Positions 1 to 29,147 of a stretch of DNA of 29,147 bases are shown here, in pieces (the first letter of the stretch is position 1; each line of letters begins with the position of its first letter). A model generated the notes under the pieces. The model saw nothing but the letters and a program-made list of their open reading frames with translations. It had not been told where the DNA came from and made no database searches. Location of the stretch: IMG/VR virus record IMGVR_UViG_3300032250_000078, positions 1-29,147 of that record, one strand, 5' to 3'. This stretch comes from a virus (Duplodnaviria > Caudoviricetes). A program made the translations under genes and the position numbers.

Positions 1-123
1 AATTGGAGATGCATTGGCACTACCAGTAAGAACAACTTTTCCTGTAGTAGATGGGATGTCAATACCATTTTTTCTAACCCAAATATCAGCAATCATGTTA
101 CCACTACCACCTGTCTTTTCAAG
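1..123. repeat. Terminal direct repeat, left copy (circular-assembly overlap)
   Basis: 1-123 is identical to 29025-29147 and lies inside a coding region whose frame continues across the join; implies a circular or circularly permuted 29,024-bp genome. Confidence 0.97.
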
Positions 124-1641
124 CTGTAATGAAAATTGAATATTGTAAATACCTGTATTTGCTAAAGTTACTCTTGTAGGATTTGAACTACCATCATTAA
201 CTACAGTTACACCATTGGTTAAATCTGTTGTGTTGAATTTTACAGGATAAGCCGTATTTGCAGAAACTGCTGTTTGTGTTGTGTTGTCTTGGAATGCTCC
301 ATAATAACCAGTTGGAGTAGCACCACCACCTGGAGTAAAAGGAGCCCAATTTCCATCTTTGTATGCATAATATTGACCATCATTTGGTGACTGACTAACT
401 AAGGTATCATTTACGCCATTATTAGGAGGCAAATAATGTATATCAGTATTTCCATTTGGTATAGGTTCTAATTTTGTTCCATCAGAGCCATTGCTAGAAA
501 ATCTTAAAAAATCAGAATTTAATTGTAATTGTGAGTTAACTCCAATCATTTGAAAATTAGGCTTAGATGTTGCTGAATTAAATCCAATTTTATAACTAGG
601 ATTAGTACTTGTATTATTATAACCAAAAATAGTAGGAGGATAAGTATTTAATGAGTCAATAAAATCTAAAGAACCTTGAAATGAATTTGAATATTTTAAG
701 GGATAAACTATATTGCTAAAATAATCAGTAAATCCAAGTTTTGTTATTTGTGAAACACCATCATCAACAATTAAAGTATTTGTTGTAGTTCCAACTGGTG
801 ACACATCTGTAACCTGCTGAAGATTTGGTGTAGTACCGCTTGAAGGTATAGCTGCAGCTTTCAGTTTTCCAGTAGTTGCTTCAAATATTGCCATACTGTC
901 TGAAACTCCAGCTAATCTTGGTATATAAATATCTGCACTATCATAAATAAATTTATGAGTAAATGGAGCGTCTTGCCCTAATGCTCCACTACCATCAGTA
1001 TCTATATATGCATACCTTGTACCTTTATTATAAAAAGAAAAAGATTTTGATGCGTCTACTAATCCTGTAGTACCGCTACCGACGTTTAAACGCATTCCGT
1101 TAAAGCTTCCTAATATAGTTGCTCTTCCTCCATTTAGTGCTAGAGCATGTTGTGTACCTATAGCTGAGCCACTACCTAGAGTTAAAGTATTACCAGAGTA
1201 AATCATATCAGAAGTAGCACCAGTTAACACTCCGCTTGCATTTGCATACGGTACAATAGTAGGAGTGTATGTTGGTAGTGTTGGTCTTAATGTTATTGTA
1301 GTATTTGTACTACCTTTAAAAACCCTAATAGTGCTATCGTTTACAGAGATAACATTATTTACAAATCTATTAGTAGTATCTATGCTAGTTCCACTTATCT
1401 CACTCCATCCTGCAGCTCTTGTCCATTTGTATAACTTGTTGTTACAAGTGTCCATCGCAATTGCGCCATTTTTAGCACTAGAATTGCGTAGCGTTGGAAT
1501 GCCACAGAATGATGGGATATGTAGCGTAGAATCGCATAGAATGCGCTTAAATTGGTATCCTGCTGCAGTCATTGGCGTATACTGAGCATAAGAAATACTA
1601 ACGATAAAAGTTAGTACTAAAAGTGTTATTATTTTTTTCAT
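1..1641 (-). CDS. Tail fibre / receptor-binding protein, N-terminal part (832 aa in total, continues at 29024->28167); has a Sec signal peptide
   Basis: Manual translation from ATG 1641 (TAA-T-ATG after the upstream gene) is open to base 1 and in frame with ORF 28167..29120. Starts MKKIITLLVLTFIVSISYA|QYTP; has a fibre shoulder motif GAIAMDTCNNKLYKW...W, a T/S/G/N-rich shaft and the start of a BclA/C1q-like domain (YYGAFQDNTTQ...TGIYNIQFSLQ). Lies between tail-tip and lysis genes. Confidence 0.88.
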   Translation of the reverse strand, partial: MKKIITLLVLTFIVSISYAQYTPMTAAGYQFKRILCDSTLHIPSFCGIPTLRNSSAKNGAIAMDTCNNKLYKWTRAAGWSEISGTSIDTTNRFVNNVISVNDSTIRVFKGSTNTTITLRPTLPTYTPTIVPYANASGVLTGATSDMIYSGNTLTLGSGSAIGTQHALALNGGRATILGSFNGMRLNVGSGTTGLVDASKSFSFYNKGTRYAYIDTDGSGALGQDAPFTHKFIYDSADIYIPRLAGVSDSMAIFEATTGKLKAAAIPSSGTTPNLQQVTDVSPVGTTTNTLIVDDGVSQITKLGFTDYFSNIVYPLKYSNSFQGSLDFIDSLNTYPPTIFGYNNTSTNPSYKIGFNSATSKPNFQMIGVNSQLQLNSDFLRFSSNGSDGTKLEPIPNGNTDIHYLPPNNGVNDTLVSQSPNDGQYYAYKDGNWAPFTPGGGATPTGYYGAFQDNTTQTAVSANTAYPVKFNTTDLTNGVTVVNDGSSNPTRVTLANTGIYNIQFSLQLEKTGGSGNMIADIWVRKNGIDIPSTTGKVVLTGSANASPI

Positions 1642-1642
1642 A

Positions 1643-2080
1643 TTATACATCACCATAAGTTATAGTTATAGATCCAGTTCCTCTAAAGTTACAAGTAAAA
1701 GTCACCATATTGTCAAAAGAAGATGTCTCATTTACTGACTCAATGTAACCGGTTCCTGTCTTCTGCAAAAATGTTACTCCCTCAATGTCCTGCTCATACC
1801 ATGTCAATGTAATAGCCTGCTTAGTTGTAATAAAATCGTATATCTGACCAAGACCAACCTTATCAATTACATCTTTATAAATAAACACCAACCCCTCAAT
1901 ACTGCCACTCCATTCTAACGCACCTGGTATGTATGTCCTATAGCTGCCATTGCCAGTGATTGATGTCTCAATTAATTCATTTGCTATGTCAAAAGTAATG
2001 GACCTAGCGCAAGCTAATGGCACGTCTACTGCAGCAACATTAATAAATAAAACAACATCACTTCCGCTTACTTTTCCCAT
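1643..2080 (-). CDS. Second tail-tube-fold protein (TP901-1 major tail protein-like), possibly distal tail ring
   Basis: Motifs GSDVVLF...ACARSITFDIANELIETS...EWSGSIEG...GTGYIESVNETSSFDNMVTFTCNFRGTG are typical of TP901-1-family tail tube proteins. Confidence 0.75.
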   Translation of the reverse strand: MGKVSGSDVVLFINVAAVDVPLACARSITFDIANELIETSITGNGSYRTYIPGALEWSGSIEGLVFIYKDVIDKVGLGQIYDFITTKQAITLTWYEQDIEGVTFLQKTGTGYIESVNETSSFDNMVTFTCNFRGTGSITITYGDV

Positions 2081-2082
2081 AA

Positions 2083-4356
2083 TTAAGACTTTTCGTAAAG
2101 ATAATTAAATTCGTAGAGTCTAATAGCTGCCCATGCTAAATAATCAGACTCTATTCCGATTTCAGATGCACCAACAAAGTCACCAGTTGGACTATCAATA
2201 ATTTCTATTAAGCTTAAATCTGCAAATCCAGTCTTGTAATCTATTGTCATCTTACCTGGAGCATACCTAAAGAAATTAAAATTTTGGTCATCAATAAATA
2301 CTGCAAGTATTGTCAACATCACATCTTCTTGATTAATGTAAAGATATCTACCCTCATATTTACTACGCATTTTATAAGTAGAAAACAAAGCTTCTTGTGT
2401 AGTTCCTTGTCCTAATCTTGGATAAATAATAGATGATGAAGGATATGTCCATCTTACTGTTAAATCTCTTAATAAATTAGTATAAGATTCTAAATAAAGC
2501 GCACCATTTATGCTAGTTCTTGGACTGTCATCAAGATAAATTTCCTTATCAATATTGTTCTTTATTTCTAATGATTGTGAGTCTGTATGTGTATGTCCAA
2601 TTATTCTATTTGATTTATTAATAAAATAATTTATTGTGAAAGATAAATCCTTATAAAATGTTTCATCTAATGAACTTGAAGCTTGATCTAAATAAACATT
2701 TATTATGCCACTCACTGGTACTTCATTAGAAACTATATTAACATCATGATAAATATTAGCATTATCTCCACCAGGTATTGAATAAGTAAAACCTCCTGAT
2801 ATTGTCCAACTGCCGTTATTATTTAATTTATAAACAGTAGTACCATCATCTAAAGTAATAATAAAAACATTATTAACTGGACCTGGTTCAGAATTGCTTG
2901 TCCTATATTTAAAACTTAATTCAATACCATCTCCTTTTGAAATTGGTATGTCACAACTTTTTGCAGATTGAGGCGCACTTCCAGTATTTCCACTTATTGC
3001 TAATTCTCTACTTTCTTCTTGATTATATGTTTCTGATGTTACATCATTATCAAAAGTTATTCTAATAAATCTTTCAGGTATTGGTGAGAATGGTCCATCA
3101 TACCAGCTATTTAATCCATAATCTCTTATTGTTTTAGTTCCAACATTAAATTCTCTTATCAACTCACCTAAATTATCACCATTAGAATTGCACAATAAAT
3201 TAGCAGGCTGCTGATAATTAAAAGTCTCTCTTACAAATTGATTTGCGCGATTTATAGACTTTAAAACACCGACCTCCATATCATTACCACTCTTAAATAT
3301 CCATACATCACTATTAGTACTTGTTGCTGTATAAATAAAATCATTTGAGTAAGTATGATACTGAAGTGTAGCACCACTATTTGTAGTGTATCTATACAAC
3401 TCATCCCATCTCATTAAATTATATGTGCCATGAGCTTGAAATAATGATAGGTTAAATCTGCTGTTAATTTGCTCTAAAATATCATAGCAATTCATCCAAT
3501 TATTTGTTTCTGAAAATGTTTCAGCTTGGACAAATGTATCTTCAAGAAGTCTTTCATTAGTTCCACCTACAGGATATATCTTGCTATAAATATTTAAGCC
3601 AGTATCAATAAAAATTGACTTTAAGCAAAGCTTATAAATATCTATCAATGGAATATAACCAGTTAAGGGATATGGAATGGTTGTTATGATATCTGTAGTA
3701 TAAGCTGCAGTAATAGTTAAATTATTAGAATTTGTCTGTACAATATAAAGACCACTAAAAACATTTATCTGTATAACTGTAAATGTGCCAGCTAATCCTC
3801 CTGAAGTTATTGTAAAAGTAGTACCAGGTAAAAGTCCTGCAAATATTGGATCTGTTGATTGTATAGTGCTTGAAAAACTAGGTATGTAACTTTCTACAGT
3901 TACACCGGTTGTAGTTAGTGGCACTCCAGTAATGACAGCCGCCTCATCTAGTGTAACATCCTTAAGCAATCCTAAGCCATCAGTAAAAGTAAGTTGTATC
4001 TCATGAGTAAAATCAACTTGTAACTCTTGTGAGTCATCCTGCAGTAGATATCCTCTGAATAACTTTTCATCAGTCTCCAATCTTATCAATTCACAATACC
4101 AGCCATAATCATCTTCAGAATAAAAGTTTGTTAATGCTAAGTCATCAACTGAATTGACTAATATGCTAACTTTTAAAGTAGAGCCTTTTATTGGAGCCTT
4201 TGGATCATCTTCTTGCCATTCATGTATAGCAGGATTTCCGCTAAGTAAAATAGTTTCCGATGCGCCAACAAAATCCTTCTTAAAGATATTTAACCTATAA
4301 GAAAGTAATGGCTGAAATGAATCAAAATCAGATGTATATAATAAGCCAAAAGTCAT
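2083..4356 (-). CDS. Tail tip / baseplate hub protein (757 aa)
   Basis: Directly downstream of the tape measure; beta-rich and acidic; FTDGLGLLKD and NCYDILEQINSRFNLSLFQ resemble hub segments of Bacteroidota siphoviruses. Confidence 0.65.
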   Translation of the reverse strand: MTFGLLYTSDFDSFQPLLSYRLNIFKKDFVGASETILLSGNPAIHEWQEDDPKAPIKGSTLKVSILVNSVDDLALTNFYSEDDYGWYCELIRLETDEKLFRGYLLQDDSQELQVDFTHEIQLTFTDGLGLLKDVTLDEAAVITGVPLTTTGVTVESYIPSFSSTIQSTDPIFAGLLPGTTFTITSGGLAGTFTVIQINVFSGLYIVQTNSNNLTITAAYTTDIITTIPYPLTGYIPLIDIYKLCLKSIFIDTGLNIYSKIYPVGGTNERLLEDTFVQAETFSETNNWMNCYDILEQINSRFNLSLFQAHGTYNLMRWDELYRYTTNSGATLQYHTYSNDFIYTATSTNSDVWIFKSGNDMEVGVLKSINRANQFVRETFNYQQPANLLCNSNGDNLGELIREFNVGTKTIRDYGLNSWYDGPFSPIPERFIRITFDNDVTSETYNQEESRELAISGNTGSAPQSAKSCDIPISKGDGIELSFKYRTSNSEPGPVNNVFIITLDDGTTVYKLNNNGSWTISGGFTYSIPGGDNANIYHDVNIVSNEVPVSGIINVYLDQASSSLDETFYKDLSFTINYFINKSNRIIGHTHTDSQSLEIKNNIDKEIYLDDSPRTSINGALYLESYTNLLRDLTVRWTYPSSSIIYPRLGQGTTQEALFSTYKMRSKYEGRYLYINQEDVMLTILAVFIDDQNFNFFRYAPGKMTIDYKTGFADLSLIEIIDSPTGDFVGASEIGIESDYLAWAAIRLYEFNYLYEKS

Positions 4357-5912
4357 TAAGTTGTGCGTTTATAAGTTTGACCGTATTTCTTATTACTAAA
4401 GAAGATATCTTGACCTCTAAGCATTCCAAACACCTCTATTGCTCCGCCAATTCCTCCCATCATTTGCGATGTCTGTGCTGCAGGTATTACCTGAGAACCA
4501 CGAGGCAAATTTATCATCTCTGGTCCTCTCTCACCAACTAAAGCCATACCACCTGGAGCGTTTCTTGTACCGACTGCAAATCCTGGAGTCCTTGTTGCGT
4601 TTCTTATTAAAGTACCTATTGCTATCAAAGCTACAGCTCCTGCAATTGCCAAGACTGGATTTGCAAGAACAAACTTCTTTATTGCCTCAACATTAATAGC
4701 AAAACTTATCATTAATTTACCAAATGCAACCATTGCTGCTCCTACTTCTTGGAATATACCTACAAAGAAATCCCCTATAGTTGCTTGACCAGATAAAGCA
4801 TTTCCTAAAGTTTCTCCAAAGCCTACAGCTATGTTTTGAGCTGCGTTTTCAAATACTGCATTAAGTTGGTCTAACTGATCCTGAGAGATTTCAAAGTTCT
4901 TAGCTGGCAAAAACTCAATAGGAACTTCTATAATTGATGGAACTGTTATCTTACTTAGTTCCTTTTCAATCTCTTCTCTAATCTTCTTGCTAGATACTTC
5001 TATTCTATCAACCTTAATAGGTTTAAACTTTAAATCACGATCAAAGGCTGGCTGCGCTCTTCTTCTTTCTTCTGCTGCTCTTCTTTCTTCTATTGCAGCT
5101 AGTCTATTAGCTGCAGCTTGCTCTTCTCTAGCTTGAGTCAATCTTGCTACTTCATCAATAGCTTTGGATAGTACATCTCTACTTGTTTTTAAAGCATCTT
5201 GGTAATCCTTTTCAGATTGACCTTGTTCCTGAGTTAGATTAAGATTATTTTGTCTAGCTTTATCTAAGGCCTCTATTGCAGCTTGTAAATCCTCAGAAAT
5301 TGTAATAAATTTGGCCTGCCTAGTTAAGACATCTTGAGTACCCTTGTCATCAAAACGAGCCTTAATATTTATATCGTTTAGTCTTGCAGCTGACTCTCCT
5401 ACTGCAATAAAATTCTTTAACTCTTCAGTAACAGCCTTTAAGGATTCTTTTGTATTTTCTAATTGATCACTAAACTCTTCACTACTTTTTTTCGCTTTAT
5501 CACTACCTCTACTCCACATACTAAGGCCAATCTGTGCAAATGTAATGGCTGATGTAATTGCGGCAAATGCAATGCCTAAGCCACCGCCCCCAGCTAAGCC
5601 ACCAACTAAAGACTTCAAAGCACCACCAACAGAACCACTCTCAGCTTTTAATCTGCTAAATGATTCAATTAATGGATTAATGTTATTGGCAATACCAATA
5701 AATCCAAAAGGAGCATCTTGTAAAACTCTTGATAAATTTGTAATGGATTGTGAAGCTTGTGTTGATCCTGTCTTTAATTCAGTATTTAAAGCTTTGCCTG
5801 CTTTTACTGCCGCTTCTGATGTCTGTGTTAATGTTTTGGATGTACTATCTAACGCCTTATTCACCTGGTCAAATCCGACCGCTGACGCTACTATCTTTAT
5901 TTCTTCAGCCAT
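4356..5912 (-). CDS. Tape measure protein (518 aa)
   Basis: Ala/Gly-rich helical protein with hydrophobic segments, N-terminal QDAPFGFIGIANNI and C-terminal GFAVG...ALVGERGPE motif; follows the tail chaperones. Confidence 0.9.
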   Translation of the reverse strand: MAEEIKIVASAVGFDQVNKALDSTSKTLTQTSEAAVKAGKALNTELKTGSTQASQSITNLSRVLQDAPFGFIGIANNINPLIESFSRLKAESGSVGGALKSLVGGLAGGGGLGIAFAAITSAITFAQIGLSMWSRGSDKAKKSSEEFSDQLENTKESLKAVTEELKNFIAVGESAARLNDINIKARFDDKGTQDVLTRQAKFITISEDLQAAIEALDKARQNNLNLTQEQGQSEKDYQDALKTSRDVLSKAIDEVARLTQAREEQAAANRLAAIEERRAAEERRRAQPAFDRDLKFKPIKVDRIEVSSKKIREEIEKELSKITVPSIIEVPIEFLPAKNFEISQDQLDQLNAVFENAAQNIAVGFGETLGNALSGQATIGDFFVGIFQEVGAAMVAFGKLMISFAINVEAIKKFVLANPVLAIAGAVALIAIGTLIRNATRTPGFAVGTRNAPGGMALVGERGPEMINLPRGSQVIPAAQTSQMMGGIGGAIEVFGMLRGQDIFFSNKKYGQTYKRTT

Positions 5913-7448: not shown

Positions 7449-7972
7449 GAATAAATATCTTTAATGTCTTTAATTAATTGTGGCGTATTTTTTACTACTG
7501 ATGGATAAAGAAAAGGCCTTTGTTTAATTCCATCTCTTAATATTTTTAATGCTGCAACATAAGCATATTTAGGATTTAATTTACCTGTTCTTTCCCCCCA
7601 TGCCATAAGTGATTTTACAAATTCTGCAAATGTACCTCCTGCTGGTCCTTTAAATGTTGCCGCATAAGTTGCCCAATCTTGGGGAAGTGATGAAACATAA
7701 GAAGCAGCAAACTTTCTTGTTCCAAACTCTATGTAAGCCGCATATTTTGCAGTTGCAACCACACTTGAATTACCACTACCGTATAATGGACTAATTGATC
7801 TAAGCAAAGCACCTTCATCTTTACTATTGGCACTCACTAAGCTTTTAGCATCTGCAGCAGTTCTGTCCGCCCAATCATTTAATGCACTCTGCACATCAGC
7901 CTGACCTTCCTTTGACAATTGGTCAAACTTCTTTACTAATGCACCTATCCCTTTAGTTTCAATCTTTATCAT
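7445..7972 (-). CDS. HK97 gp10-like neck/tail completion protein
   Basis: GALLRSI, YAAYIEFGT and RPFLYPS motifs. Confidence 0.85.
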   Translation of the reverse strand: MIKIETKGIGALVKKFDQLSKEGQADVQSALNDWADRTAADAKSLVSANSKDEGALLRSISPLYGSGNSSVVATAKYAAYIEFGTRKFAASYVSSLPQDWATYAATFKGPAGGTFAEFVKSLMAWGERTGKLNPKYAYVAALKILRDGIKQRPFLYPSVVKNTPQLIKDIKDIYS

Positions 7973-8433
7973 AACGCTGCAGGATAATAAAGTAATTCTA
8001 TAAATGATTGAGCTAGTCTATCATTAGCAAAAGCAAAAGTATTATTTTGCACTTGTATCTGAATAGTATCATCATCAATCTTCTGCACTCTATAATAGTT
8101 GACATTATTATCAACTGATATAAAGTACACTCTTGCAAGTCTAGGCAAATCTCCAGTAAAAGCTCCTACTAATGTTCCTTGATAAGTACCAACACCGTTA
8201 TAACTCCAAACTATATTACCTATCGTATTCTCCCACACATAATCTACAGTTGGAGCAGATGTACCAGTCTGCGTCATATTAACTCTATAAATATAACCAG
8301 GATTGACAAAATTTGACAAGTCACCAACTGTCATGCTGCCCTCATTAAATGCTGGCCTTAGTCCAGGTATAATATCTCCAGACTCTAATGCACCTAGATT
8401 AGGCAATTGGTTATATGGTATTCTTAATGCCAT
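7969..8433 (-). CDS. Putative neck/collar fibre or decoration protein
   Basis: Inserted in the neck module; N-terminus resembles fibre-anchor motifs (NQLPNLGALESGDIIP...TVGDL); beta-rich remainder (TQTGTSAPT...ENTIGNIVWSYNGVGTY). Confidence 0.45.
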   Translation of the reverse strand: MALRIPYNQLPNLGALESGDIIPGLRPAFNEGSMTVGDLSNFVNPGYIYRVNMTQTGTSAPTVDYVWENTIGNIVWSYNGVGTYQGTLVGAFTGDLPRLARVYFISVDNNVNYYRVQKIDDDTIQIQVQNNTFAFANDRLAQSFIELLYYPAAL

Positions 8434-9014
8434 TAGTAAAATAGTATTGTTGCGACCTCGCCATCTTCAAATGGTATGCCCCATGTCATCTCTCCAGTAA
8501 TATCATCATAAAGAACTTCCTTACCTACCGGAACTCCACTTGTACGAATCACATATTGAATGCCATCTTTAAAAGCATTAAACACATGACGGCCTATAAA
8601 TCCGCCATAAGTGAAAGTAGTCTCACCACCTATGCCAGTGTAATTATACACCTGTATTGTATTTAAGTCCATTGGAGCATCTGAGTTAATTGATTCATCT
8701 AATTTAGTTGCCTGTATGTATTCAAAATCTTTCCTTCCTTCCTTTCTTATCTGTACGCTGTTTATTTTATAGAACTCATTTTCATAAGCTATGACATCAT
8801 TGCTTCGTGTAGGCCTCTCTATCTCATACCTCATTATAAAAGTCTGATCATATGTCCACTGCCTTTGCTGATACTCATTTCTTGGCAATCCTTGTCTATC
8901 CATAACCTCTGCCCACTTTGTCCAGTTGCCAGTCTCAATAGGAATAAGACCGCCAAATTCATTCTTAGCAGTAGTGTACCGATATATAGTAATGCGTCTA
9001 TTTAATTTAAACAC
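8433..9014 (-). CDS. Head closure protein (SPP1 gp16-like) with ~80-aa C-terminal extension
   Basis: KLNRRITI...NEFGG...WTKWAEV...FIMRY...YKINSV core plus extra YTGIGGETTFT...FEDGEVATILFY domain. Confidence 0.8.
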   Translation of the reverse strand: MFKLNRRITIYRYTTAKNEFGGLIPIETGNWTKWAEVMDRQGLPRNEYQQRQWTYDQTFIMRYEIERPTRSNDVIAYENEFYKINSVQIRKEGRKDFEYIQATKLDESINSDAPMDLNTIQVYNYTGIGGETTFTYGGFIGRHVFNAFKDGIQYVIRTSGVPVGKEVLYDDITGEMTWGIPFEDGEVATILFY

Positions 9015-12564: not shown

Positions 12565-13904
12565 TACTCTCCAGGCATTGTGACGTCAGGCACCGCCCCC
12601 AAGTCTGTTATTAATTGCTTACCTGAATCAATTATTATCTGGTCCATCATTGGTTCTGCCAACTCCTCAAAGCCCATCATATCTCTCTTCTCGTTTGGTG
12701 TAGTCCACCACATAGCATTAAGAGCATCAGCTTGCATCTTCATGTCTTCCTGTAGTGCAGGTATCTCTGATAGATCTATCTCTATCGTTCTTCTTACGCC
12801 ATCAAGAGCATACATTGGAATCACACCTTTGATGATGGCATCTCTCATTAAATAGATATTCGGTAATATCGAATTAGTATAGAGCATCTTCTCAGCTGAT
12901 GCAACATTGCTGTATGTACTGCTGTCTTGATTGTTTAATAGTATCTCAGGGAACTTGTAAGCATTGCAAAGCTTTGTGAAGTCTACACCTGACAAGCTGC
13001 TCACATCCATATCAGCTAAGCTTAATCCCAATGGCAGATATCCCATCTCTCCTGCTGCAAAATATGGCGCACCTTTGTTGGAAGAGTTACGCAGATAATT
13101 AGCAAAGTCATTTTTACGCTGGCCTAATGTCTCTATTGCAAAGTCACTCTTCTCATACACTATACCCGGAACCCCTCCGTTCTGCATCTGTGCTACTGAC
13201 GCATCCATCCCAGCATTTAACCTGGTAAGTCTCTTAGTTAGCACCTGCAATGGACTCAAGCCTCTCCACTGCTGGCCATTTGTTATTGATGGATTATAAT
13301 ACTTAACATGAATCACTTCCTCAGTTGATAGCGTACCATCAAAGCCCATGTCAAAGTATCTATAGCTTATTACATGCTGAGGAAATGTCTGACTAATATT
13401 TACAATGACATTGGCACCCTTCATAGGATGCAGGATAACCTTGCCAGCATTTGGACCTAACTCAATAACTTCCTTATACAAGAACAGCTCACCAGTCACA
13501 TAAAGAATAGTATAGAAACTTACTAAATCCTCATAGCTTAAACTTTTAATAAACTCATTGAATCTATCCTGCTCAGGTAGATCTATCATTGCCTTAGTCT
13601 GGTAATGCTTGCCAAGTAGTGATGTCTTAGAATACTTCTTCATTGACTTCATAGCCGAATCATCAACTATCTCATAACCATACATCGGAATCCTTGCAGC
13701 TGTCTGAGCTAGATAAGATATGATTGAGTAGACATCATCAACAGTAACATAAGTATTTACGTTCTCAACATCTAGCCATGATGGATAAATGCTTGTTGAT
13801 ATATTAACTGCTGTTGAAAGGTTTGTCCGTTGAAGTGCTTTGACTTGTTGTTGTAGATTCTTAACCGTCTTCGTCTGTCCGAAGAGTCTATCAATCATTC
13901 CCAT
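12564..13904 (-). CDS. Portal protein (HK97 family); likely start MGMIDRLFG at 13904
   Basis: EEVIHVKYYNP...RGLSPLQ...NGGVPGI...LCNAYKFP...TYSN...TPNEKR motifs. Confidence 0.95.
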   Translation of the reverse strand: MGMIDRLFGQTKTVKNLQQQVKALQRTNLSTAVNISTSIYPSWLDVENVNTYVTVDDVYSIISYLAQTAARIPMYGYEIVDDSAMKSMKKYSKTSLLGKHYQTKAMIDLPEQDRFNEFIKSLSYEDLVSFYTILYVTGELFLYKEVIELGPNAGKVILHPMKGANVIVNISQTFPQHVISYRYFDMGFDGTLSTEEVIHVKYYNPSITNGQQWRGLSPLQVLTKRLTRLNAGMDASVAQMQNGGVPGIVYEKSDFAIETLGQRKNDFANYLRNSSNKGAPYFAAGEMGYLPLGLSLADMDVSSLSGVDFTKLCNAYKFPEILLNNQDSSTYSNVASAEKMLYTNSILPNIYLMRDAIIKGVIPMYALDGVRRTIEIDLSEIPALQEDMKMQADALNAMWWTTPNEKRDMMGFEELAEPMMDQIIIDSGKQLITDLGAVPDVTMPGE

Positions 13905-15402
13905 ATGCAAACACCATTTTAGGTTTAAGTTCAAATATTTCTCTCATCATAAACATATCTAGTAAATCCGGTGAGTCACCATTAAGCTTCACCTTCATAT
14001 CATCCTTACCGATAATCCTTAGCTTGCCATCATTGTCAGCCTTGTCTCTTCTGATAGCCTTCCTTTCGTACATGAACCGCTGACGCATAGTCATCTGGTT
14101 ATCGTACATCTTATCTGACACCTTCTTGTTAATCTTCATCTGCCCATCACTAACCCTACCGCCTGAACGATAATAACACTGTGTCTTTAAATTAAAGTAG
14201 TTCTCCTTTATCAGCCTGCCTGATGCCTCATCCTTAACCGCCAATGGCGCAGCACCACCGTTAAATGGAACCGCACCTCTAATGAACCCATCGACATAAC
14301 TTCCCACACCATCTGCGTCATAACAAATATAACGATTTTCTACAGAATACTTTCGAGCCATGTTAGATATTAATTCGATTACCTGCTTACCATCACTCTT
14401 ATCCATAATCTCTATATCACACAGCTCCATACCTTCCCAGTAACCCACCACAAGCTTATTACTTCCCTTCATCGCAATGTCCGCAGTTATGTACTTACCT
14501 GTATTATTCACGCCCTTTAGATTCTCAAACAATCCCATAAACACATCATGCTCGTACACATCCATTGGACTGTTGGATATCTTCCATCTTCCCTCCAACA
14601 ACTGCCGCCTGGTGTCTTCGTCCTGACTAAGCAAATTACCTGGATAAGATGGATCATACTGCAAACCCTTTTTATTATCGTAAATGGAACCGGAGACAAA
14701 CGTAATGGACTTAATAAAGTCTTTAGCATCTAATCCTGATGAGTCCATCATTGGCTTAATGATATGCTCAGCTTTGTCGTAAACTTCTCCATAATTATCC
14801 CCCCAAATATAATTAGCACCGTACTTTATAAAGTATCTTAGTTTACCTCTGCGTTCCAATATTGGGAACCCATCCTCAGGATCTATCCACCAGCTGATAA
14901 GTTTATAAACCCATGACTCAGGATCAGGATTGCAGGTTGCCCTAACATATGGCTTGACACCACAGCCTGACCTGTTACGACTAAGCAAATAAAAGAACAT
15001 CGACTCAGTAAAGTGAGTAAGCTCATCAAAGCCTAAGAATGGTATCTGTGCGCCCTGCCAATCATACTTATTCTTCTCGAACTCCAAATGTCTAAATGAT
15101 ATCTTTGAGCCTACTGGGAACTTCCAGTCTAGGCTAGACTCTCTAGGTTCGCCATTGACAAGCGGATAAAGCTTGACCGATGTGTCCCATAGTCCGCCCT
15201 CATTCCTAATCTGTACACTGGTACGTCTAAATATAACACCACCAAATCCAGGTACAGTAATGTGACGTAGTGGATCAAGGAGCAGCGCAAATGTTTTACC
15301 CACAAACGCAGCTGCTCCTCCGATCACGATATCCGCTTTACTACTGAGCGCAATCTGTTGGTAACCTTCCTGAGGTTCAATGTATGTTATCTGTTTAGTC
15401 AA
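13891..15402 (-). CDS. terL: Terminase large subunit
   Basis: Q motif (PQEGYQ), Walker A GGAAAFVGKT, Walker B LGFDELTHF, RATCNP coupling motif, LLEGRW, nuclease ADIA...YDADGVG...SPDLLD. Confidence 0.95.
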   Translation of the reverse strand: MTKQITYIEPQEGYQQIALSSKADIVIGGAAAFVGKTFALLLDPLRHITVPGFGGVIFRRTSVQIRNEGGLWDTSVKLYPLVNGEPRESSLDWKFPVGSKISFRHLEFEKNKYDWQGAQIPFLGFDELTHFTESMFFYLLSRNRSGCGVKPYVRATCNPDPESWVYKLISWWIDPEDGFPILERRGKLRYFIKYGANYIWGDNYGEVYDKAEHIIKPMMDSSGLDAKDFIKSITFVSGSIYDNKKGLQYDPSYPGNLLSQDEDTRRQLLEGRWKISNSPMDVYEHDVFMGLFENLKGVNNTGKYITADIAMKGSNKLVVGYWEGMELCDIEIMDKSDGKQVIELISNMARKYSVENRYICYDADGVGSYVDGFIRGAVPFNGGAAPLAVKDEASGRLIKENYFNLKTQCYYRSGGRVSDGQMKINKKVSDKMYDNQMTMRQRFMYERKAIRRDKADNDGKLRIIGKDDMKVKLNGDSPDLLDMFMMREIFELKPKMVFAYGND

Positions 15403-15707
15403 TTAGCTGAAGGCAATTCATTATCTATGTCGAAGGTATCCCTGCCATTGTCAGGCAGTCTTATAATTTGTACGTGTTGTACATCCGCATCTATCTCTAT
15501 GTCAAACTTCTCTCTAGGTTTGCCTGCCGCATGTTCCCACACGAACTTTACCAGTGATGGTTCATTGGTTTGGATTAATGCTTTAAACCCCTCTAGAAGG
15601 GAACCATAATGCTCAGTAATAGCTTGGATGGCAATCGACTGAATGCCTAGCTCCTCTGCCCTAGATTTACGTCCTGCGCCTAATCTTGCGCCTCCTTTAC
15701 CTGCCAT
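15399..15707 (-). CDS. terS: Terminase small subunit; start revised to ATG 15707
   Basis: GGARLGAGRK N-terminal motif, HAAGKP; directly upstream of terL; a promoter lies downstream of the ORF-track start. Confidence 0.75.
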   Translation of the reverse strand: MAGKGGARLGAGRKSRAEELGIQSIAIQAITEHYGSLLEGFKALIQTNEPSLVKFVWEHAAGKPREKFDIEIDADVQHVQIIRLPDNGRDTFDIDNELPSAN

Positions 15708-15736
15708 TGATTTGAGTTGAATATTCGTTACTAAAC

Positions 15737-15769
15737 CAAAGTTAAACATTTTTTTATAACGTCCACAAA
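15737..15769 (-). promoter_or_regulatory. Bacteroidota sigma-A-type promoter for packaging/late operon
   Basis: TTTG (15769-15766), 21-nt spacer, TAACTTTG (15744-15737), matching the -33/-7 consensus. Confidence 0.75.
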
Positions 15770-15789
15770 TAACGCTCAAATCCTTTGTG

Positions 15790-15797
15790 TACCTTTG
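15790..15797 (+). promoter_or_regulatory. -7 element (TACCTTTG) for the sole plus-strand gene
   Basis: Exact TAnnTTTG 9 nt before ATG 15807; no properly spaced -33 seen. Confidence 0.6.
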
Positions 15798-15806
15798 TTA
15801 CAGCCT

Positions 15807-16739
15807 ATGAAAACACTTTTTACCTTACTCATGCTGAGTTTCAGCCTGTGCATATATGCACAATGTATTGATATCTATGGTTCTAAAGTTGACTGTCCAA
15901 CTGAAGAAGATAGCTTAGTACTTTACAATAATGCTATAAAAGTAGTCCAGTTCTATGACAGCAATACAGAATATACCCTAAGCAATAGCATAGAATTACA
16001 ATCCATCAAACAGAAACGCGAGATATTTGAGCAACTTAAAGAAGCTCGTAGGATGTTTAATATCATCAGAAGAGAGGTTGCCAATCTTAGTGAAGCTGAG
16101 AAAAAGTTTACTGCAGGTAAACCAAAGAAAGGATATAAGGACATAGGATATAGTGATTACTATGCTGAAGTTGATGAGTACCGGTTCTACCAGCGCGAGC
16201 TAGAGAATCAGATAATAAATGCCAATGCTCAGATTCCAATTTATGACAACCGGATAGCTCCAATTCTGTTAAATACATATCAGAACATAGACACATCATC
16301 CATCTATTTTGGTGACCTGGTACAAATACCGCTTTACGTTCCTGTAGTGGTTAAGCCATTTGCTTTGCTTACTGGACCTGAACTGATGCTCAGAAATAAG
16401 GTTCTGAAGATACCTGCTCCTAAAGTTTACCCAGTTAGATCAATGGTAAAAAGAGATACCACACCTGAGCCAAATTATACGCAAAAGAATATAAAGGAGC
16501 AAAAGAACCCATTATTATATCCATCTGCATATAAATTACCAGTGTATGCTTACAACCAATATGGTTCTGCATCAGTAATAGGCTTTATGATTGGCCATAA
16601 ATTTAAAAAGTTAACCCATGAGGAATATGCTCAATATGCTGTTGCTCCGTTTGCACGCACTATACTGGCAGATAATTTACTTTTGGATAAACTCCTCAAA
16701 ATAAAGTTTGGAGCGTATTACTTTGGATTGTTCCAGTGA
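15807..16739 (+). CDS. Exported protein of unknown function (moron-like, 310 aa) with Sec signal peptide
   Basis: MKTLFTLLMLSFSLCIYA|QCIDIYGSKVDCP; long ORF filling the gap between terS and the replication module, with its own -7 element. Confidence 0.8.
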   Translation: MKTLFTLLMLSFSLCIYAQCIDIYGSKVDCPTEEDSLVLYNNAIKVVQFYDSNTEYTLSNSIELQSIKQKREIFEQLKEARRMFNIIRREVANLSEAEKKFTAGKPKKGYKDIGYSDYYAEVDEYRFYQRELENQIINANAQIPIYDNRIAPILLNTYQNIDTSSIYFGDLVQIPLYVPVVVKPFALLTGPELMLRNKVLKIPAPKVYPVRSMVKRDTTPEPNYTQKNIKEQKNPLLYPSAYKLPVYAYNQYGSASVIGFMIGHKFKKLTHEEYAQYAVAPFARTILADNLLLDKLLKIKFGAYYFGLFQ

Positions 16740-16972
16740 TACTTTGGCTTCCTACCTATTTTTAGCTTATTTAAGACCTTTATTTCCTTTCCATTGCAGT
16801 ATATGCGTATTACTTCACTATCTGCCTTGTATCGGTCTATAAGTATCTCTAAAACTTCATTCTGGTCCTTCATTACTGATGTGCATCTGTACACCTCATA
16901 AGAATCTCTTTTTACTATGTAATGAAACTTTGGTTTACCATACCAATGTAGCTCACTAATCGATTTTTCCAT
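16718..16972 (-). CDS. Hypothetical protein (84 aa, basic)
   Basis: ORF on the main coding strand, converging on the plus-strand gene. Confidence 0.6.
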   Translation of the reverse strand: MEKSISELHWYGKPKFHYIVKRDSYEVYRCTSVMKDQNEVLEILIDRYKADSEVIRIYCNGKEIKVLNKLKIGRKPKYHWNNPK

Positions 16973-16974
16973 TT

Positions 16975-17152
16975 TTTGTCTATTTCTCTTTATATAATTA
17001 ATTAATTAAGATAAGTTCAATAAATTAATAAAAATAGGTTAGATACGTTAGTGATTTTGTAACTGATTGATACTCATAGCGTATTTCACTAACCTATTTT
17101 ATTAAAAATGCGTTAGTAGCTAATATAAATGCTCATTATTAGTTAGTGATTT
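16975..17152. other. Putative replication origin: AT-rich tract, inverted repeat and GTTAG repeats
   Basis: Mostly non-coding region after the primase-helicase; AAAATAGGTTAG (17031-17042)/CTAACCTATTTT (17089-17100) inverted repeat; GTTAGTGATTT twice; TAATTAATTAATTA tract. Confidence 0.5.
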
Positions 17153-19465
17153 ATCTATATTATTACTTTTTTTATTAATCTTAAACATCTTAATATTGTT
17201 ATGTTGCCAGTTTTTCTCCTCAAAAAACTCGTTTTCAAAGACCTCAGATGCTATTACTAACCCTTTTTTAAAACGCTTTAAAGAGTACTCTTTTTTGTCC
17301 AATTCATACTTCATCAAGAACCCTTTCCACTCATCAGTAATTGATTTAAAATTGCTTGATTCTAGATCATCATAATAGTCCAAGAAATCTTCTCCAAACT
17401 GTTGTTTTATCTGTTTGCGTTTAAGTTTAGCAGAATTATCTACTTGTACTATCCCAATCTCCATGTATTCCTTTACGCAGTAGAACATAAGATTGTAAAA
17501 CTTGGTCCATTCATCATTATCCCAGTCATCAAAAAAAGTATGTTCAAAAACTTTTAAGGGAGTATTCTTACTATTAAAGAAAGGAGCAAATTCAAGCACT
17601 CTTTGCCTTCTTCTACTATGCTCTGAGTTATTGCTAATGGTGTAATTGGTAGTAAATGCAATCTTAGGAGATTCAGAGAATTTAAGATGTAGCTCATCCT
17701 GGTTTTTCTTTTCTATGGTGATTCCTTCTGTAATTGTAGGGTAAAACTTCTCAAAGTCTACATTCTTTGGACAATCCTCAATAATTACGAGCTTAGTTCC
17801 TAGTGTCACACGCTGATAGGCAAATGTTTTATCAGGTTTAAATGTTTTACCATCAATAATGACTACAGGTATAAGCTTAGCAATGGCTTGAAAGAATAAA
17901 CCTTTACCGGTACCACCACCTTTACTCTCATCATCAGTTTCTTCTGCAAGTATTGGAGCATATGGCTTAGATGGATCTTTAAAGCTGTGCAAGATGTAAC
18001 CTATAAGAGTCATGGCGTACTGGACACGCTTTGCATCATCTCCAGATATCTTACATAAGAATTTAAAGAATACAGATGACAAAGGATCAAATTCAGTGTT
18101 AATCTTTATGTCTTTGTCTATAATCTGCGACTCCCATATGTATTCATCAATATCACCATAATTAATAGTGCTGATATTATCCTTTGTAATTACTACGATA
18201 TTATTATTAAATGGGAAGTAGCATTTATCTTGTGTATCATGTAAAATTTTTACATCAGCTTTATCAATATATTCAAAAAATGAATTAGAAAATATAGTAT
18301 TAGTATGCTTCATGATTTCTTCCATTACATCATAATGTTTTTCTTTTACTAATTTTTTCTTAACAAACTTTTTAATATCCTCAGCATGTACTTCTTTAAT
18401 TTTTTTATGATTAGTATTTACAAGCCTGTATGCACCACTTTTTGGATTGTGAAAGTATAACTGCACATAATTATCATGTAGCCATTCCTGAAGCTTGTAT
18501 TTGTTAATAATTATATTACCTTTTTGTGTTTTTATCCAAAACCATCCTTCAGTGTTTTTGTCTCCGTAAACATCAGATAATTGGTTACAAGCTTTCTTCC
18601 AATCTCCTTTACACTCCAGGTGAGTATAAACTGCAAAAGGATTATAACCTTTGTTTTGGAATGATGTAGATGTTGTATGTGGGTAAAAAATACGCTTGTC
18701 CTTAAAGATAACGGCAGATGTTACACTAGTTGTTTGACCAGGTCTAATTAAATAAAATCTTTCATTATCTTCACGCACCACTCGCCATCCATGCTTCTCC
18801 ATAAGTACAATTATGTCACCACGTTTATTATAATCATCCCATACGGTAAGTTTAGTACCATTTGTAGGCATAACCGGTTGCTTAATATTCTCAACAATCT
18901 GATTAAAACTTCTTGCTATGCTAAGCAATAAATCACGCTCTTCTAGCGTTATGATGGGAATGTCATTTGTGTCCAGTGGAGTGTACCCATCTGATGGAGG
19001 AGCAATGACATACCCTGCTTCGCCACGAGTCTCAATAAGTACAAACTGCTTGGCATTAGGATTGATAAACTTCTCATCATCAGTAGCTGGTCTTTCTGCG
19101 AGCTTCTGATTACCTTCTATGCTTTCGCATCTGTAGTAGATATGATAGCCATTTGACTTAGTGCGGATAATTTTTAAACGGCCATAAAGCTCAGGATGTG
19201 CGTCTAATATCTTCGCTTCATACTCTTCCCATTTAATGCCGTACTTACAGTCTACATCTATCACTTCTAGGTTACCACTAACGGCACCGCATATTACGGC
19301 AATGCCTTTGGCTTTTGGAGTGTTAAACATCTGCTCTAGTTCCTGATCTGTGGCAATGTTAGATTGGTACTTTTTCCATGCAAAGATGGATGTCTTAGAG
19401 TTGTCAGTTGAGATTACCGATAAGCCTTTTTTGGCGTAGCTTTTCGCTGATTGTAATAAATTCAT
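17120..19465 (-). CDS. Bifunctional primase-polymerase fused to C-terminal P-loop helicase
   Basis: Prim-Pol motifs GIAVICG...VIDVD...TKSNGYHIYY...IETRGEAGYVIAPPS; Walker A GGGTGKG, Walker B VIIED, FTTN motif C. Confidence 0.9.
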   Translation of the reverse strand: MNLLQSAKSYAKKGLSVISTDNSKTSIFAWKKYQSNIATDQELEQMFNTPKAKGIAVICGAVSGNLEVIDVDCKYGIKWEEYEAKILDAHPELYGRLKIIRTKSNGYHIYYRCESIEGNQKLAERPATDDEKFINPNAKQFVLIETRGEAGYVIAPPSDGYTPLDTNDIPIITLEERDLLLSIARSFNQIVENIKQPVMPTNGTKLTVWDDYNKRGDIIVLMEKHGWRVVREDNERFYLIRPGQTTSVTSAVIFKDKRIFYPHTTSTSFQNKGYNPFAVYTHLECKGDWKKACNQLSDVYGDKNTEGWFWIKTQKGNIIINKYKLQEWLHDNYVQLYFHNPKSGAYRLVNTNHKKIKEVHAEDIKKFVKKKLVKEKHYDVMEEIMKHTNTIFSNSFFEYIDKADVKILHDTQDKCYFPFNNNIVVITKDNISTINYGDIDEYIWESQIIDKDIKINTEFDPLSSVFFKFLCKISGDDAKRVQYAMTLIGYILHSFKDPSKPYAPILAEETDDESKGGGTGKGLFFQAIAKLIPVVIIDGKTFKPDKTFAYQRVTLGTKLVIIEDCPKNVDFEKFYPTITEGITIEKKNQDELHLKFSESPKIAFTTNYTISNNSEHSRRRQRVLEFAPFFNSKNTPLKVFEHTFFDDWDNDEWTKFYNLMFYCVKEYMEIGIVQVDNSAKLKRKQIKQQFGEDFLDYYDDLESSNFKSITDEWKGFLMKYELDKKEYSLKRFKKGLVIASEVFENEFFEEKNWQHNNIKMFKINKKSNNIDKSLTNNEHLY

Positions 19466-25211: not shown

Positions 25212-25778
25212 CTATACGAGACAAAGATAAAACCTTTTGCCATACAAAGCAATAAGCTCTGCTTTATCTGTGCCATTAATTATCTTCCTGGCATTTACCC
25301 AATCCTCACGCTGATCATTGAAGTACCTAGCTAAATTAACGCCAGTAAATAGGCCTTGAGTCATGCCCTTAACCAGTATATCTATAGATACATCCATTCT
25401 AAGTAAAAGCTCAGGATTATTAAGCAGGTCAAGCTTTAATAACTTGCCAAATTTCTCATAATTATCGTACCAGGTAAGCTGGACTAGTCCTCTGCCATAA
25501 TAAAGCTTGTCAGGAAATTGATAAGGCTTTAGATTTACTTTTATCTTCCTGCCGTATGGCTTGCGGATGCCTTGCCCTACTTCTTCAATTGGTTCAAATG
25601 ATCTGCTAGTCTCATGATATACTGTTGCCAAGATGTATGCTATCCATCTCTTATCGGTAATAAATTTATTACTTTCACAGTACTCCACAATAGCCAGCAT
25701 TCCCCTCAATTGATGAGGAGTAACCTTATTATAAAGGTTGTAACTTTTTAGCCTATTATGGAACGCTATTTCATTCAT
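25212..25778 (-). CDS. Endolysin, glycoside hydrolase family 19
   Basis: AYILATVYHET, YYGRGLVQLTWYDNY, ARKIINGTDKA motifs. Confidence 0.92.
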   Translation of the reverse strand: MNEIAFHNRLKSYNLYNKVTPHQLRGMLAIVEYCESNKFITDKRWIAYILATVYHETSRSFEPIEEVGQGIRKPYGRKIKVNLKPYQFPDKLYYGRGLVQLTWYDNYEKFGKLLKLDLLNNPELLLRMDVSIDILVKGMTQGLFTGVNLARYFNDQREDWVNARKIINGTDKAELIALYGKRFYLCLV

Positions 25779-26269
25779 CTTTTATTATAAGCAAATAAAA
25801 TATTGCCAATTATTGATATGCCGAGTAATATTAAAAGCCATTTTATCCAGTCTGCCTGCTTCTCATTTTTTCGTACTAAAATCTGTTGGCCTTCTACACT
25901 TTTCTTAAGGAGTATTTCGCAGCTGCTGTCTCTAATTATTTTAGTAATTGTTTTGGTTGTGGAAGGAATGGCCACAAACTTATCTTTGTAAACAATGTAT
26001 GTCTTAGGCCTTGATGGATTTGTCAAGTAAAGTGTGTCAATTACTTCTACCGGTTCTGCCTGCTCTGGACATTTAATCTCAATAAAATCATACTCCACTT
26101 TGACAGTGCTGTCAACATCAGTTTCCTTACATGGAAACTTATCACGCGCAAAGGCTGCGACTGTCTCAGGATAATTCTCATAAGCTTTATTGATGTCTTT
26201 GTTGGCCTTGTTAGATGTGTAGCAACTACTCATCATTGTTAGTAACGCTATCGTCAAAAGTCTCTTCAT
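25775..26269 (-). CDS. Unimolecular spanin candidate (lipoprotein with C-terminal TM helix)
   Basis: MKRLLTIALLTMMSS|C lipobox plus C-terminal WLLILLGISIIGNILFAY; adjacent to the endolysin. Confidence 0.75.
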   Translation of the reverse strand: MKRLLTIALLTMMSSCYTSNKANKDINKAYENYPETVAAFARDKFPCKETDVDSTVKVEYDFIEIKCPEQAEPVEVIDTLYLTNPSRPKTYIVYKDKFVAIPSTTKTITKIIRDSSCEILLKKSVEGQQILVRKNEKQADWIKWLLILLGISIIGNILFAYNKR

Positions 26270-26501
26270 AAATCTCATTAATGTAGTGTGATAAAATTCT
26301 AAGTGATTGTCTCTTTATTTTCTTTATCCGGTTCTCATCAGTTTTGCTTAAAATGGCTGTGTCAATACTATCGATGGCAGCCATAGCATTAACTGCAGAA
26401 GTGATGTAATCATGAGAAGTAGATAAAAGTATCTCGCCATCATATTCTACTTCTTCTTCTGCAGGAGTGACGGTATCTGGTATTATTACTTTTTCACTCA
26501 T
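26226..26501 (-). CDS. Hypothetical acidic protein (91 aa)
   Basis: ORF in the lysis region with its own TAACTTTA element. Confidence 0.7.
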   Translation of the reverse strand: MSEKVIIPDTVTPAEEEVEYDGEILLSTSHDYITSAVNAMAAIDSIDTAILSKTDENRIKKIKRQSLRILSHYINEIYEETFDDSVTNNDE

Positions 26502-27941: not shown

Positions 27942-27946
27942 GTTCT

Positions 27947-27954
27947 TAAAGTTA
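27947..27954 (-). promoter_or_regulatory. TAACTTTA -7-like element for lysis cassette
   Basis: Recurrent 8-mer, 5 nt before ATG 27941. Confidence 0.5.
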
Positions 27955-27990: not shown

Positions 27991-28167
27991 TCATGCCGAA
28001 TAAATCACATACTGGATATAATCAGGCAGTTCGCAATCAGCAATCTCAAATACTTCAGGCTTTTCAACTACTGATGGATGCTCCTCAAGTGGAGCAGTCC
28101 AATCATCAGTCTTTACAACTGTATAAGTATTTGTTCCTACGCTATTGATTTGTCTGATATGTTTCAT
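27991..28167 (-). CDS. Small acidic protein (58 aa, MKHIRQINSVGTNTYTVVKTDDW...), possible fibre chaperone; not in ORF track
   Basis: TAATG coupling to the fibre stop; fills the gap before the holins. Confidence 0.7.
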   Translation of the reverse strand: MKHIRQINSVGTNTYTVVKTDDWTAPLEEHPSVVEKPEVFEIADCELPDYIQYVIYSA

Positions 28168-29147
28168 TATTGTGCTTTGTATGTGATGTTAATCTTAAAT
28201 CCTCTAGCTGATACACCAGTACCAATGAAGCCAACCTCAAAGGCTGTATTAGCTGAGTTTCTTCTGATGTATGATATTGCTACGTTACTATTGATAGTTG
28301 CAGCTGTGTTGTGAGTTGATGCAGAACCAGTATAAAGATAGCCGCTGGCACCAGTCCAACCTGTAGGAACTGCTGGAGCAGGCATATCCGATGGAAGTGT
28401 AAAGAAATAACCAGTATTAGATGCACCAGCATTCGCATATAGAGCATTGAATTGCATATTAACAGTCTTACCGATTTGTTGCCAAGTATAATTAGCAGAA
28501 GTTAGTGTTGTAGGAGCAGTACCAGTCCAAGTAATTGTATTAGTCATATTTTGCTCTGCAACATCATAAAAAGCTTGAGCAGCTACATTAGCAGCAGAGG
28601 CTGTGTTGTTAGCCATTATTGTATTTGCTGAAATACTTTTGCGCTGAAATACTGATGTGTCTGATGCTCCTATTTTATTATTGAATGTAGTCCAATTAGA
28701 TGATGATAATGCACCTCTATTTGTAGCTGATGCAGTAGGTAAATTAAATGTATGGGAAGTACCTGTAGACACTATCTTAAAATCAGTACTATCTGTTCCC
28801 GTTACCATTGTCTGCGCTGCTCCTGTAAGGGAATTAATAGCAGTAATTCCCGTACCTGCCATGATACCACTTTGCTGAGTAACAGTTAATATAGAAGATG
28901 GTATTGCTGGATGCGGAGATGTAGCACCAGCAGCCACTATCTCAACATTCACATTACTAGTTGCCCACATTAACTGCACATAATCTCCAGCGGCTAAGTC
29001 AAGAACATAATTCCAAGCTGCTACAATTGGAGATGCATTGGCACTACCAGTAAGAACAACTTTTCCTGTAGTAGATGGGATGTCAATACCATTTTTTCTA
29101 ACCCAAATATCAGCAATCATGTTACCACTACCACCTGTCTTTTCAAG
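28167..29147 (-). CDS. Tail fibre / receptor-binding protein, C-terminal part
   Basis: Continuation of 1641->1; end of the BclA/C1q-like domain (IWVRKNG...LDLAAGDYVQL), linker, and an RBP-head-like terminal domain (YTWQQIGKTVN...FTLP). Confidence 0.88.
   Translation of the reverse strand, partial: LEKTGGSGNMIADIWVRKNGIDIPSTTGKVVLTGSANASPIVAAWNYVLDLAAGDYVQLMWATSNVNVEIVAAGATSPHPAIPSSILTVTQQSGIMAGTGITAINSLTGAAQTMVTGTDSTDFKIVSTGTSHTFNLPTASATNRGALSSSNWTTFNNKIGASDTSVFQRKSISANTIMANNTASAANVAAQAFYDVAEQNMTNTITWTGTAPTTLTSANYTWQQIGKTVNMQFNALYANAGASNTGYFFTLPSDMPAPAVPTGWTGASGYLYTGSASTHNTAATINSNVAISYIRRNSANTAFEVGFIGTGVSARGFKINITYKAQ
29025..29147. repeat. Terminal direct repeat, right copy
   Basis: Identical to 1-123. 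Confidence 0.97.

Follow-up and report, generated by a model that had tools for sequence, protein, structure and literature searches.

A siphophage tail fibre with a predicted Sec/SPI signal peptide and a putative passage through the host periplasm

Described fibre and secretion systems, and the phage genome

Tail fibres of tailed phages are normally made and folded in the cytoplasm and leaderless. An exported, disulfide-bonded receptor-binding protein is present in the particles of filamentous phages (i.e. pIII), and inoviruses assemble in the membrane and are extruded, whereas the phage analysed here is tailed, of HK97 type and built in the cytoplasm. A Gln at position +1 marks SPI cleavage in Bacteroidota (i.e. 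the Q-rule; PMC5837995), and O-glycosylation in these bacteria occurs at D-(S/T)-(A/L/V/I/M/T), a motif that is confined to non-cytoplasmic proteins according to a review (PMC12871550). Described Sec/SPI and O-glycosylation substrates resemble our fibre in their leader, Gln at +1 and D-(S/T)-hydrophobic motif (PMC5837995, PMC10653852, PMC12871550). The Q-rule and O-glycosylation have, however, been described for host proteins, and the available text of the review does not mention phages (PMC12871550). Q-rule proteins of P. gingivalis prophages also combine a leader with Gln at +1; their function is unknown and the accessible part of the source does not describe them as tail fibres (PMC10367356). 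The Bdellovibrio MAT fibres are phage-like mosaics with a signal peptide, a conserved domain behind it and variable adhesive tips (PMC10769870). MAT proteins differ, on a comparison by description, in being cellular surface adhesins with a conserved ~130-aa beta-rich domain, whereas our fibre gene lies in a phage tail operon; one MAT fibre (8ond) was among the weak fold matches of full models, and PDB sequence searches with A3 and A4 returned no MAT match. Signal-less Bacteroidota siphophage fibres (i.e. 11b gp45/gp46, phi12:1 gp59/gp60, those of L050-L053 and a group of 19 fibres) occupy the same slot and have a conserved start and a mosaic stalk, but they lack a leader, Gln at +1 and a sequon excess and use other N-terminal anchors; the head and 58-aa partner of our fibre are shared by the 19. 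A literature search with thin coverage of subscription journals found no paper describing an exported or glycosylated tailed-phage fibre.

The window (i.e. the whole stretch of 29,147 nt) is recorded as a complete circular virus genome. Its ends overlap by 123 bp (29025-29147 being identical to 1-123), giving a circle of 29,024 bp. On a contig of run X1 (29,054 bp, with another opening point), positions 27900-29147 were located at 13142-14389 and positions 1-4400 at 14267-18666 with zero differences; the presence of both segments undivided on this contig indicates that the junction is contiguous. Gene annotation identified a small HK97-type siphophage with a terminase, portal, Mu-F protein, protease, capsid, connectors, tube and tape measure, followed in the list of genes by a hub, second tube-fold protein, fibre, 58-aa gene, two holin-like genes, spanin-like lipoprotein and GH19 endolysin, and by a primase, helicase and nucleases (Table 1). 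No integrase was found among the ORFs annotated with PHROG and Pfam. A 314-aa frame without a Pfam or PHROG match (15795-16739, +) runs in the opposite direction, with the replication genes to one side and the candidate for the small terminase to the other.

The phage likely infects a member of the Bacteroidota. In 50,697 phage records, capsid matches were restricted to Cellulophaga phi10:1 and Flavobacterium 11b (four records), the best being to the cultured phi10:1 (34.5%). A Shine-Dalgarno core was present at 0 of 29 starts and the upstream regions were A-rich, a pattern that we take to be a Bacteroidota trait. The promoter motif TAnnTTTG occurred at a chance level (37 versus 37.3 expected) that carries no information on a separate promoter. 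Hub homologues were detected in 8 of 401 genomes sampled from, and only from, the family of a Chitinophagaceae bin. Two matches were obtained in a scan of genome contigs, both on phage-like contigs inside bins, so that the host is not fixed by the bin names.

Table 1. Coordinates of the fibre regions and neighbouring features in the 29,147-nt window
Feature	Position	Strand	Basis
Predicted Sec/SPI signal peptide, residues 1-19, cleavage after S-Y-A	1585..1641	-	sequence and 42 homologous leaders
Mature N-terminal domain, residues 20-84, from Gln20; first strict sequon at 37; Cys46/Cys66	1390..1584	-	67% mean identity
Variable stalk; six of eight strict sequons (residues 88, 102, 234, 248, 329, 412)	250..1389	-	mosaic among relatives; low model confidence
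C1q/TNF/BclA-like domain, part 1, residues 465-547, runs on over junction	1..249	-	fold match
C1q/TNF/BclA-like domain, rest, residues 548-581	28923..29024	-	fold match
C-terminal fibre-head beta-barrel, residues 695-832 and stop, sequon-free	28167..28583	-	pLDDT 83-96, fold matches
58-aa signal-less partner of head type	27991..28167	-	45/45 homologues directly behind a gene ending in the head family
Second tail-tube-fold protein (putative Dit or T5 p140-like ring)	1643..2080	-	PHROG 1407 E 3e-18; monocin tube E 1.9e-5
gp27-like baseplate hub with inserted CBM4/22-like domain (381-577)	2083..4356	-	Z 15.5 to Mu gp44, rmsd 3.8, 271 aligned
Tape-measure protein, 518 aa	4356..5912	-	PHROG tape-measure matches
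GH19 endolysin	25212..25778	-	PHROG/Pfam annotation
Putative spanin-like lipoprotein	25775..26278	-	lipobox-like leader and place beside endolysin
Repeat of 1-123	29025..29147	.	assembly overlap, circular contig

The fibre gene and its predicted leader

The gene follows those for the tape measure, hub and tube ring, as do siphophage tail fibre/RBP genes. With the circle closed, it encodes the 832-aa protein of the original prediction in a minus-strand frame running from 1641 through the junction to a stop at 28167, and an identical 832-aa protein is present in the database (P0001). The leader is composed as had been claimed, with two Lys, an uncharged hydrophobic core and S-Y-A followed by Gln20; in-frame ATGs at 1656 and 1650 may lengthen the n-region by a few residues.

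Leaders were called with a hand-written n/h/c heuristic and not with SignalP. Conservation in homologues, on which the original prediction depended, was borne out, as a leader plus Gln was found in 49 of 49 distinct fibre ORFs whose start could be called from DNA as compared to 1 of the 484 remaining ORFs of these loci. By the same heuristic, 91 of 111 database homologues of residues 1-110 exhibited a leader plus Gln; the 20 misses comprised 14 proteins beginning within the leader, four beginning at or after an inner Met, one internal-repeat match and one overlooked leader. A further 114 profile matches included 87 called as leader plus Gln, with misses that were mostly short gene calls and a few unrelated repeat proteins. 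All 42 distinct leaders had A/S/G at -1 and A/S/T/V at -3, and charged residues occupied 0 of 420 core positions. Mean pairwise identity was 29% for the leaders versus 67% for the following 58 residues (i.e. the mature start). Drift of the leader sequence around an uncharged core and small residues at -1 and -3 indicates selection on signal function and not on sequence.

These properties bear on two other accounts of the leader. Bacteroidota genomes encode many secreted fibre-like proteins, and the leader might have been left behind from a host gene that was captured, or be a hydrophobic start that arose by chance. Retention of leader properties during sequence drift contradicts such an origin, as does the ratio of 49/49 to 1/484, and hubs that are 25-71% identical span too wide a range for an exported fibre to have survived as a relic without use; we attach almost no probability to it. 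Alternatively, in a signal-anchor variant of the route favoured here, a leader left uncleaved until assembly could keep folded fibres tethered at the inner membrane until tails collect them as it fails. Such tethers are used by signal-anchor-release endolysins, but the canonical -3/-1 residues and Gln at +1 in all 42 leaders are the mark of SPI cleavage in Bacteroidota, and tethering appears very improbable.

A start at the downstream Met could yield two products, a leaderless form from the inner Met24, added to the tail inside the cytoplasm, and an exported form with a side role. The residues ahead of this Met are nearly invariant and the leader is present in all 49 members with DNA, whereas most members have an in-frame Met after the cleavage site and the four proteins noted above among the first 111 were called from or after it (their upstream DNA being unseen). 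Both forms would include the Cys pair and sequon excess, which would be sensible only after export. Additionally, the downstream Met is not required, being replaced by Gln in L127/P0150 and parted from the leader by an FN3 domain in L011, L136 and others. Synthesis of two products is considered improbable. The FN3 domain, which contains two Cys, is inserted between leader and anchor motif in the distant members L011, L136, L140 and L144. An insert in this place means that docking cannot need the anchor motif at a free N-terminus.

Other routes to the cell surface had been discounted for the fibre, and the results agreed. A lipobox was absent, with Gln at +1 and the first Cys at 36. A T9SS C-terminal domain was found in none of the members scanned (55/55 negative; NCBIfam, E<=0.01), the C-terminus being the head barrel. 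An autotransporter (YadA anchor) barrel was also absent, with no Pfam match on either gene part and a soluble head fold.

The fibres of relatives combine a conserved start with a mosaic stalk, range from about 400 to 1400 aa and in some cases bear pectate-lyase-like, BNR or FN3 domains. A C1q/TNF/BclA fold was recovered, as expected, at residues 465-581 (best Z 7.9, a moderate value; rmsd 2.8, 102 aligned), and this domain has 30-48% identity to domains in 13 phage records, including Limnohabitans and Acinetobacter phages. The RBP-like head was identified as a viral fibre-head barrel at residues 695-832, with an again moderate Z of 8.1 to reovirus sigmaC (rmsd 3.2, 127 aligned) and further matches to the Dettilon tailspike (Z 7.5) and the lactococcal bIL170 head (Z 7.0). 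Usable fold matches were obtained from VIA; Foldseek results for the full fibre and hub models were swamped by noise or CBM. Nothing in the fibre was named by PHROGs, Pfam, NCBIfam or PDB sequence searches. Behind the fibre, some relatives have a second leader-bearing gene, with a basic residue instead of Gln at +1 (L003:3337-4938, L005:7161-8759, L007:4459-6408, L182:5177-8374 and L217:5174-9403). These genes appear beta-helix enzyme-like by eye, gave no Pfam match in the three scanned and parallel the leader-bearing pectate lyases of phi10:1 and phi39:1.

Cysteine pair, sequon excess and exchange with signal-less fibres

The N-domain matched 526 proteins at E<=0.001 in the 50% library and gave no confident model of its own (pLDDT 40-81). 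A fibre shoulder had been claimed for this region; as an Mtd_N-like shoulder (PF18454) it had no Pfam match, and an Atlas feature match to an Mtd_N cluster (0.79) is a lead only. Three early Cys had also been proposed; these are present at 36, 46 and 66, with none elsewhere, but only 46 and 66 are conserved. Both were present in 185 of 221 N-domains, neither in 35 and a single one in 1, and co-occurrence of Cys46 and Cys66 is the pattern expected of a disulfide.

Potential O-glycosylation sites were counted as strict sequons (i.e. D-(S/T)-(A/I/L/V/M/T)). The fibre contains 8 sequons versus 3.6 expected (p 0.03), an excess that is weak for a single protein and strong for the family. Among 21 fibre representatives with <50% identity, 271 sequons in 220 distinct contexts were observed versus 78.8 expected, a 3.4-fold enrichment, and masking of repeats and the first 100 aa still left 191 versus 63.7. 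Ratios for control motifs in the fibres were 0.27 for E-S/T-x, 1.00 for N-S/T-x, 1.06 for the reversed motif and 0.45 for D-S/T followed by a nonpermissive residue. The third position favoured C, T, A, I, L, S and V and avoided K, R, E, D, P and aromatic residues, matching the published preference. Sites clustered in the anchor and stalk, and the head (i.e. the last 130 aa of the 21 representatives) had 2 versus 6.3 expected. Ratios of 0.80, 0.42 and 0.77 were obtained for the hub, tube ring and capsid, respectively, and the fibre ratio exceeded that of the hub in 31 of 31 phages. The spanin-like lipoprotein, whose expected place is the periplasm, served as an internal positive control, with 46 sequons versus 6.6 expected in 14 representatives (7.0-fold). 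Values for the tape measure (1.5, with control motifs also at 1.35-1.40) and the tube (1.45) indicate that a small excess is possible without export, and several prophage fibres had no excess (4 versus 4.0, 2 versus 4.5 and 2 versus 1.9).

The sequon excess and the Cys pair are, as read from sequence, two independent marks of periplasmic passage. Together with the conserved leader properties and Gln at +1, they strongly support the predicted export of the fibre by Sec/SPI. The leader-bearing fibre, as predicted, thereby departs from the textbook property of tail fibres, i.e. synthesis in the cytoplasm without a leader.

Replacement of the fibre was observed among relatives. On four contigs (three distinct proteins), the gene after the homologous hub and ring encodes a signal-less fibre, in which 3 sequons were counted versus 4.7 expected. 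Two of these four contigs were included in a hub tree, built by a quick search without bootstrap, and both nested beside the hub of our genome. Complete fibres with the head and 58-aa partner numbered 33, of which 14 had a leader plus Gln and 19 were signal-less. The 14 leader-bearing fibres contained 201 sequons versus 50.9 expected and the 19 signal-less fibres 57 versus 69.4, with ratios that did not overlap (p 1.4e-6). Occurrence of the same head and partner with and without a leader indicates that this is an ordinary fibre-tip module and that the sequon excess tracks the leader.

Seven prophage regions contained the hub. A leader-plus-Gln gene was located directly after the ring in two by rule and in two more by eye; in the other three, this gene was second in one, replaced by a signal-less fibre in one and missing in one. 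Fibres of unrelated tails, Mu-like contractile tails among them (L175, E 6e-13; L176, L177; L212), also have the N-domain, indicating that the domain does not serve solely to plug into this baseplate; it could be an export or trimerisation domain. The L175 region (L175:9824-12565, in the region of G083:C2) is a Mu-like contractile-tail prophage whose leader-plus-Gln fibre has the same N-domain and no sequon excess.

Tail-tip neighbours, cultured counterparts and a route to the virion

The product of the ring gene, whose stop abuts the fibre start, is homologous to phi10:1 gp089 (E 2e-12). Relatives exhibit varied insertions and extensions of this second tube-fold protein (141-388 aa), and a ~75-aa ring extension in one of them is the domain that is fused here to the head-closure protein (8433-9014, -). 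The hub is homologous to phi10:1 gp088 (E 6e-22); this link derives from profiles, as tblastn of the hub against cultured phages gave no match. Hub residues 381-577 matched CBM4-2 with a Z of 11.7, and a second small insertion is present at about 145-230. The 58-aa gene, without a Pfam or PHROG match, lies next to 19 of 23 head-positive fibres versus 0 of 15 head-negative ones, and its product is likely a tip ligand or chaperone. A locus search that used just the head returned one locus. A 154-aa neck gene (7969-8433, -), present in only some relatives, has a start like the anchors of signal-less fibres and a body like 11b gp37. It was rejected as a general adaptor because it is absent from 17 of 21 fibre-positive loci spanning capsid to tube, a count from overlapping loci with detection by BLAST only.

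Cultured Cellulophaga phages provided counterparts. In phi10:1 (KC821618), homologues of the capsid, hub and ring occur in the same order and are followed by gp091-094, all with a leader plus Gln and all with records annotated 'experimental MS/MS proteomics'. The same annotation applies to the leader-plus-Gln proteins gp25/gp26 of phi39:1 (KC821626), which has a remote hub homologue, and gp085-087 of phi18:3 (KC821620). The spanin-like genes of these three phages lack the MS/MS annotation, which argues against plain membrane debris. The Cellulophaga proteins thus share with our fibre a leader, Gln at +1 and a fibre or lyase layout, while the MS/MS virion annotation is theirs. In place of one long fibre, these phages have several small genes with leaders and one small gene without, and the proteins are counterparts by position and layout, with no detectable homology and no sequon excess. 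Profiles of the N-domain or head gave no homology to them, the weakest hint being head versus gp092 (E 0.055), and their sequon counts were 0-3 versus 1.4-4.2 expected. This sequon poverty suggests that export is the general feature, whereas heavy glycosylation belongs to certain lineages. The leaders go unmentioned in the Cellulophaga phage records. Phage 11b has the same tail tip with signal-less fibres, and no leader fibre was found among the translated genes of phi12:1 and phi46:1.

The original prediction named a non-virion, receptor-masking protein as its alternative. The fibre could indeed be exported and glycosylated yet never enter the particle, acting as a trimeric adhesin, free or on the cell surface, that hides receptors, prevents superinfection or is released as a decoy, with adsorption performed by the hub's own binding module. 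The CBM-like domain of the hub and an N-domain that is not tied to one baseplate fit this role. There are also precedents: Bdellovibrio MAT fibres are surface-displayed phage-like trimers with a conserved domain behind the signal peptide (PMC10769870), and Q-rule proteins of P. gingivalis phages were interpreted as outer-membrane modifiers (PMC10367356). The fibre has, however, no lipobox, barrel or T9SS tail, and occupies a late-operon slot in which its start abuts the tube-ring stop. Signal-less fibres interchange with it in nested relatives, its head and partner are shared with 19 signal-less fibres, and counterparts are annotated in the particles of three cultured phages. The absence of an integrase among annotated ORFs would leave no lysogen to protect, and the N-domain was present in only 4 of the 401 sampled family genomes, the three with context being prophage tail loci. 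An adhesin outside the virion is considered unlikely, though its probability is not negligible.

A virion fibre is supported indirectly by the slot, the mosaic architecture, the head and partner held in common with signal-less fibres and the MS/MS annotation of cultured counterparts. We consider it fairly probable that the protein is an exported, host-glycosylated and disulfide-bonded fibre that is added at lysis; a hub with its own carbohydrate-binding module counts against this, as the particle may not need the fibre to adsorb. The gene would be co-transcribed late with the tail genes, given that its start abuts the ring stop. Sec export would be followed by SPI cleavage exposing Gln20, which would become pyroglutamate, a modification that is stabilising in P. 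gingivalis (PMC10653852). The Cys46-Cys66 bond, O-glycosylation of the stalk and probably trimer formation would take place in the periplasm. Binding to the tail tip would then occur at or after lysis, by docking on finished, cytoplasm-built tails once the inner membrane and wall fail, most likely after the holin and endolysin act and before or as the spanins open the outer membrane. The signal-less 58-aa partner may meet the head at the moment of docking or act before export. T4 long fibres are completed separately and attach to fibreless particles (PMC3004832), indicating that late docking is feasible. The likely gain would be a stalk that resists proteases, is hydrated and resembles the host, topped by a binding head that stays bare, and the avoidance of binding too early within the cell.

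This locus contributes one head that occurs with and without a leader, signal-less fibres that replace ours in nested relatives, and a cultured relative whose tail tip is homologous. In the accepted view, the entire assembly of tailed-phage particles takes place in the cytoplasm, and a periplasmic fibre would add a post-lysis step. Whether many tailed Bacteroidota phages split assembly in this manner, with heads and tails made in the cytoplasm and a fibre clipped, disulfide-bonded and O-glycan-coated in the periplasm before joining at lysis, is in our estimation evenly balanced. The fibre family offers natural paired controls in the form of the same head with and without a leader. Export, if confirmed, would explain the annotation of such fibres as hypothetical secreted proteins, and the fibre gene would be switchable in this respect, the same head being swapped between exported and cytoplasmic versions. 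Infectivity would depend on host Sec, glutaminyl cyclase, Dsb and O-glycosylation. Host-made glycosylation would become part of virion biology, and the glycan coat on the fibres would constitute a non-genetic imprint of the previous host.
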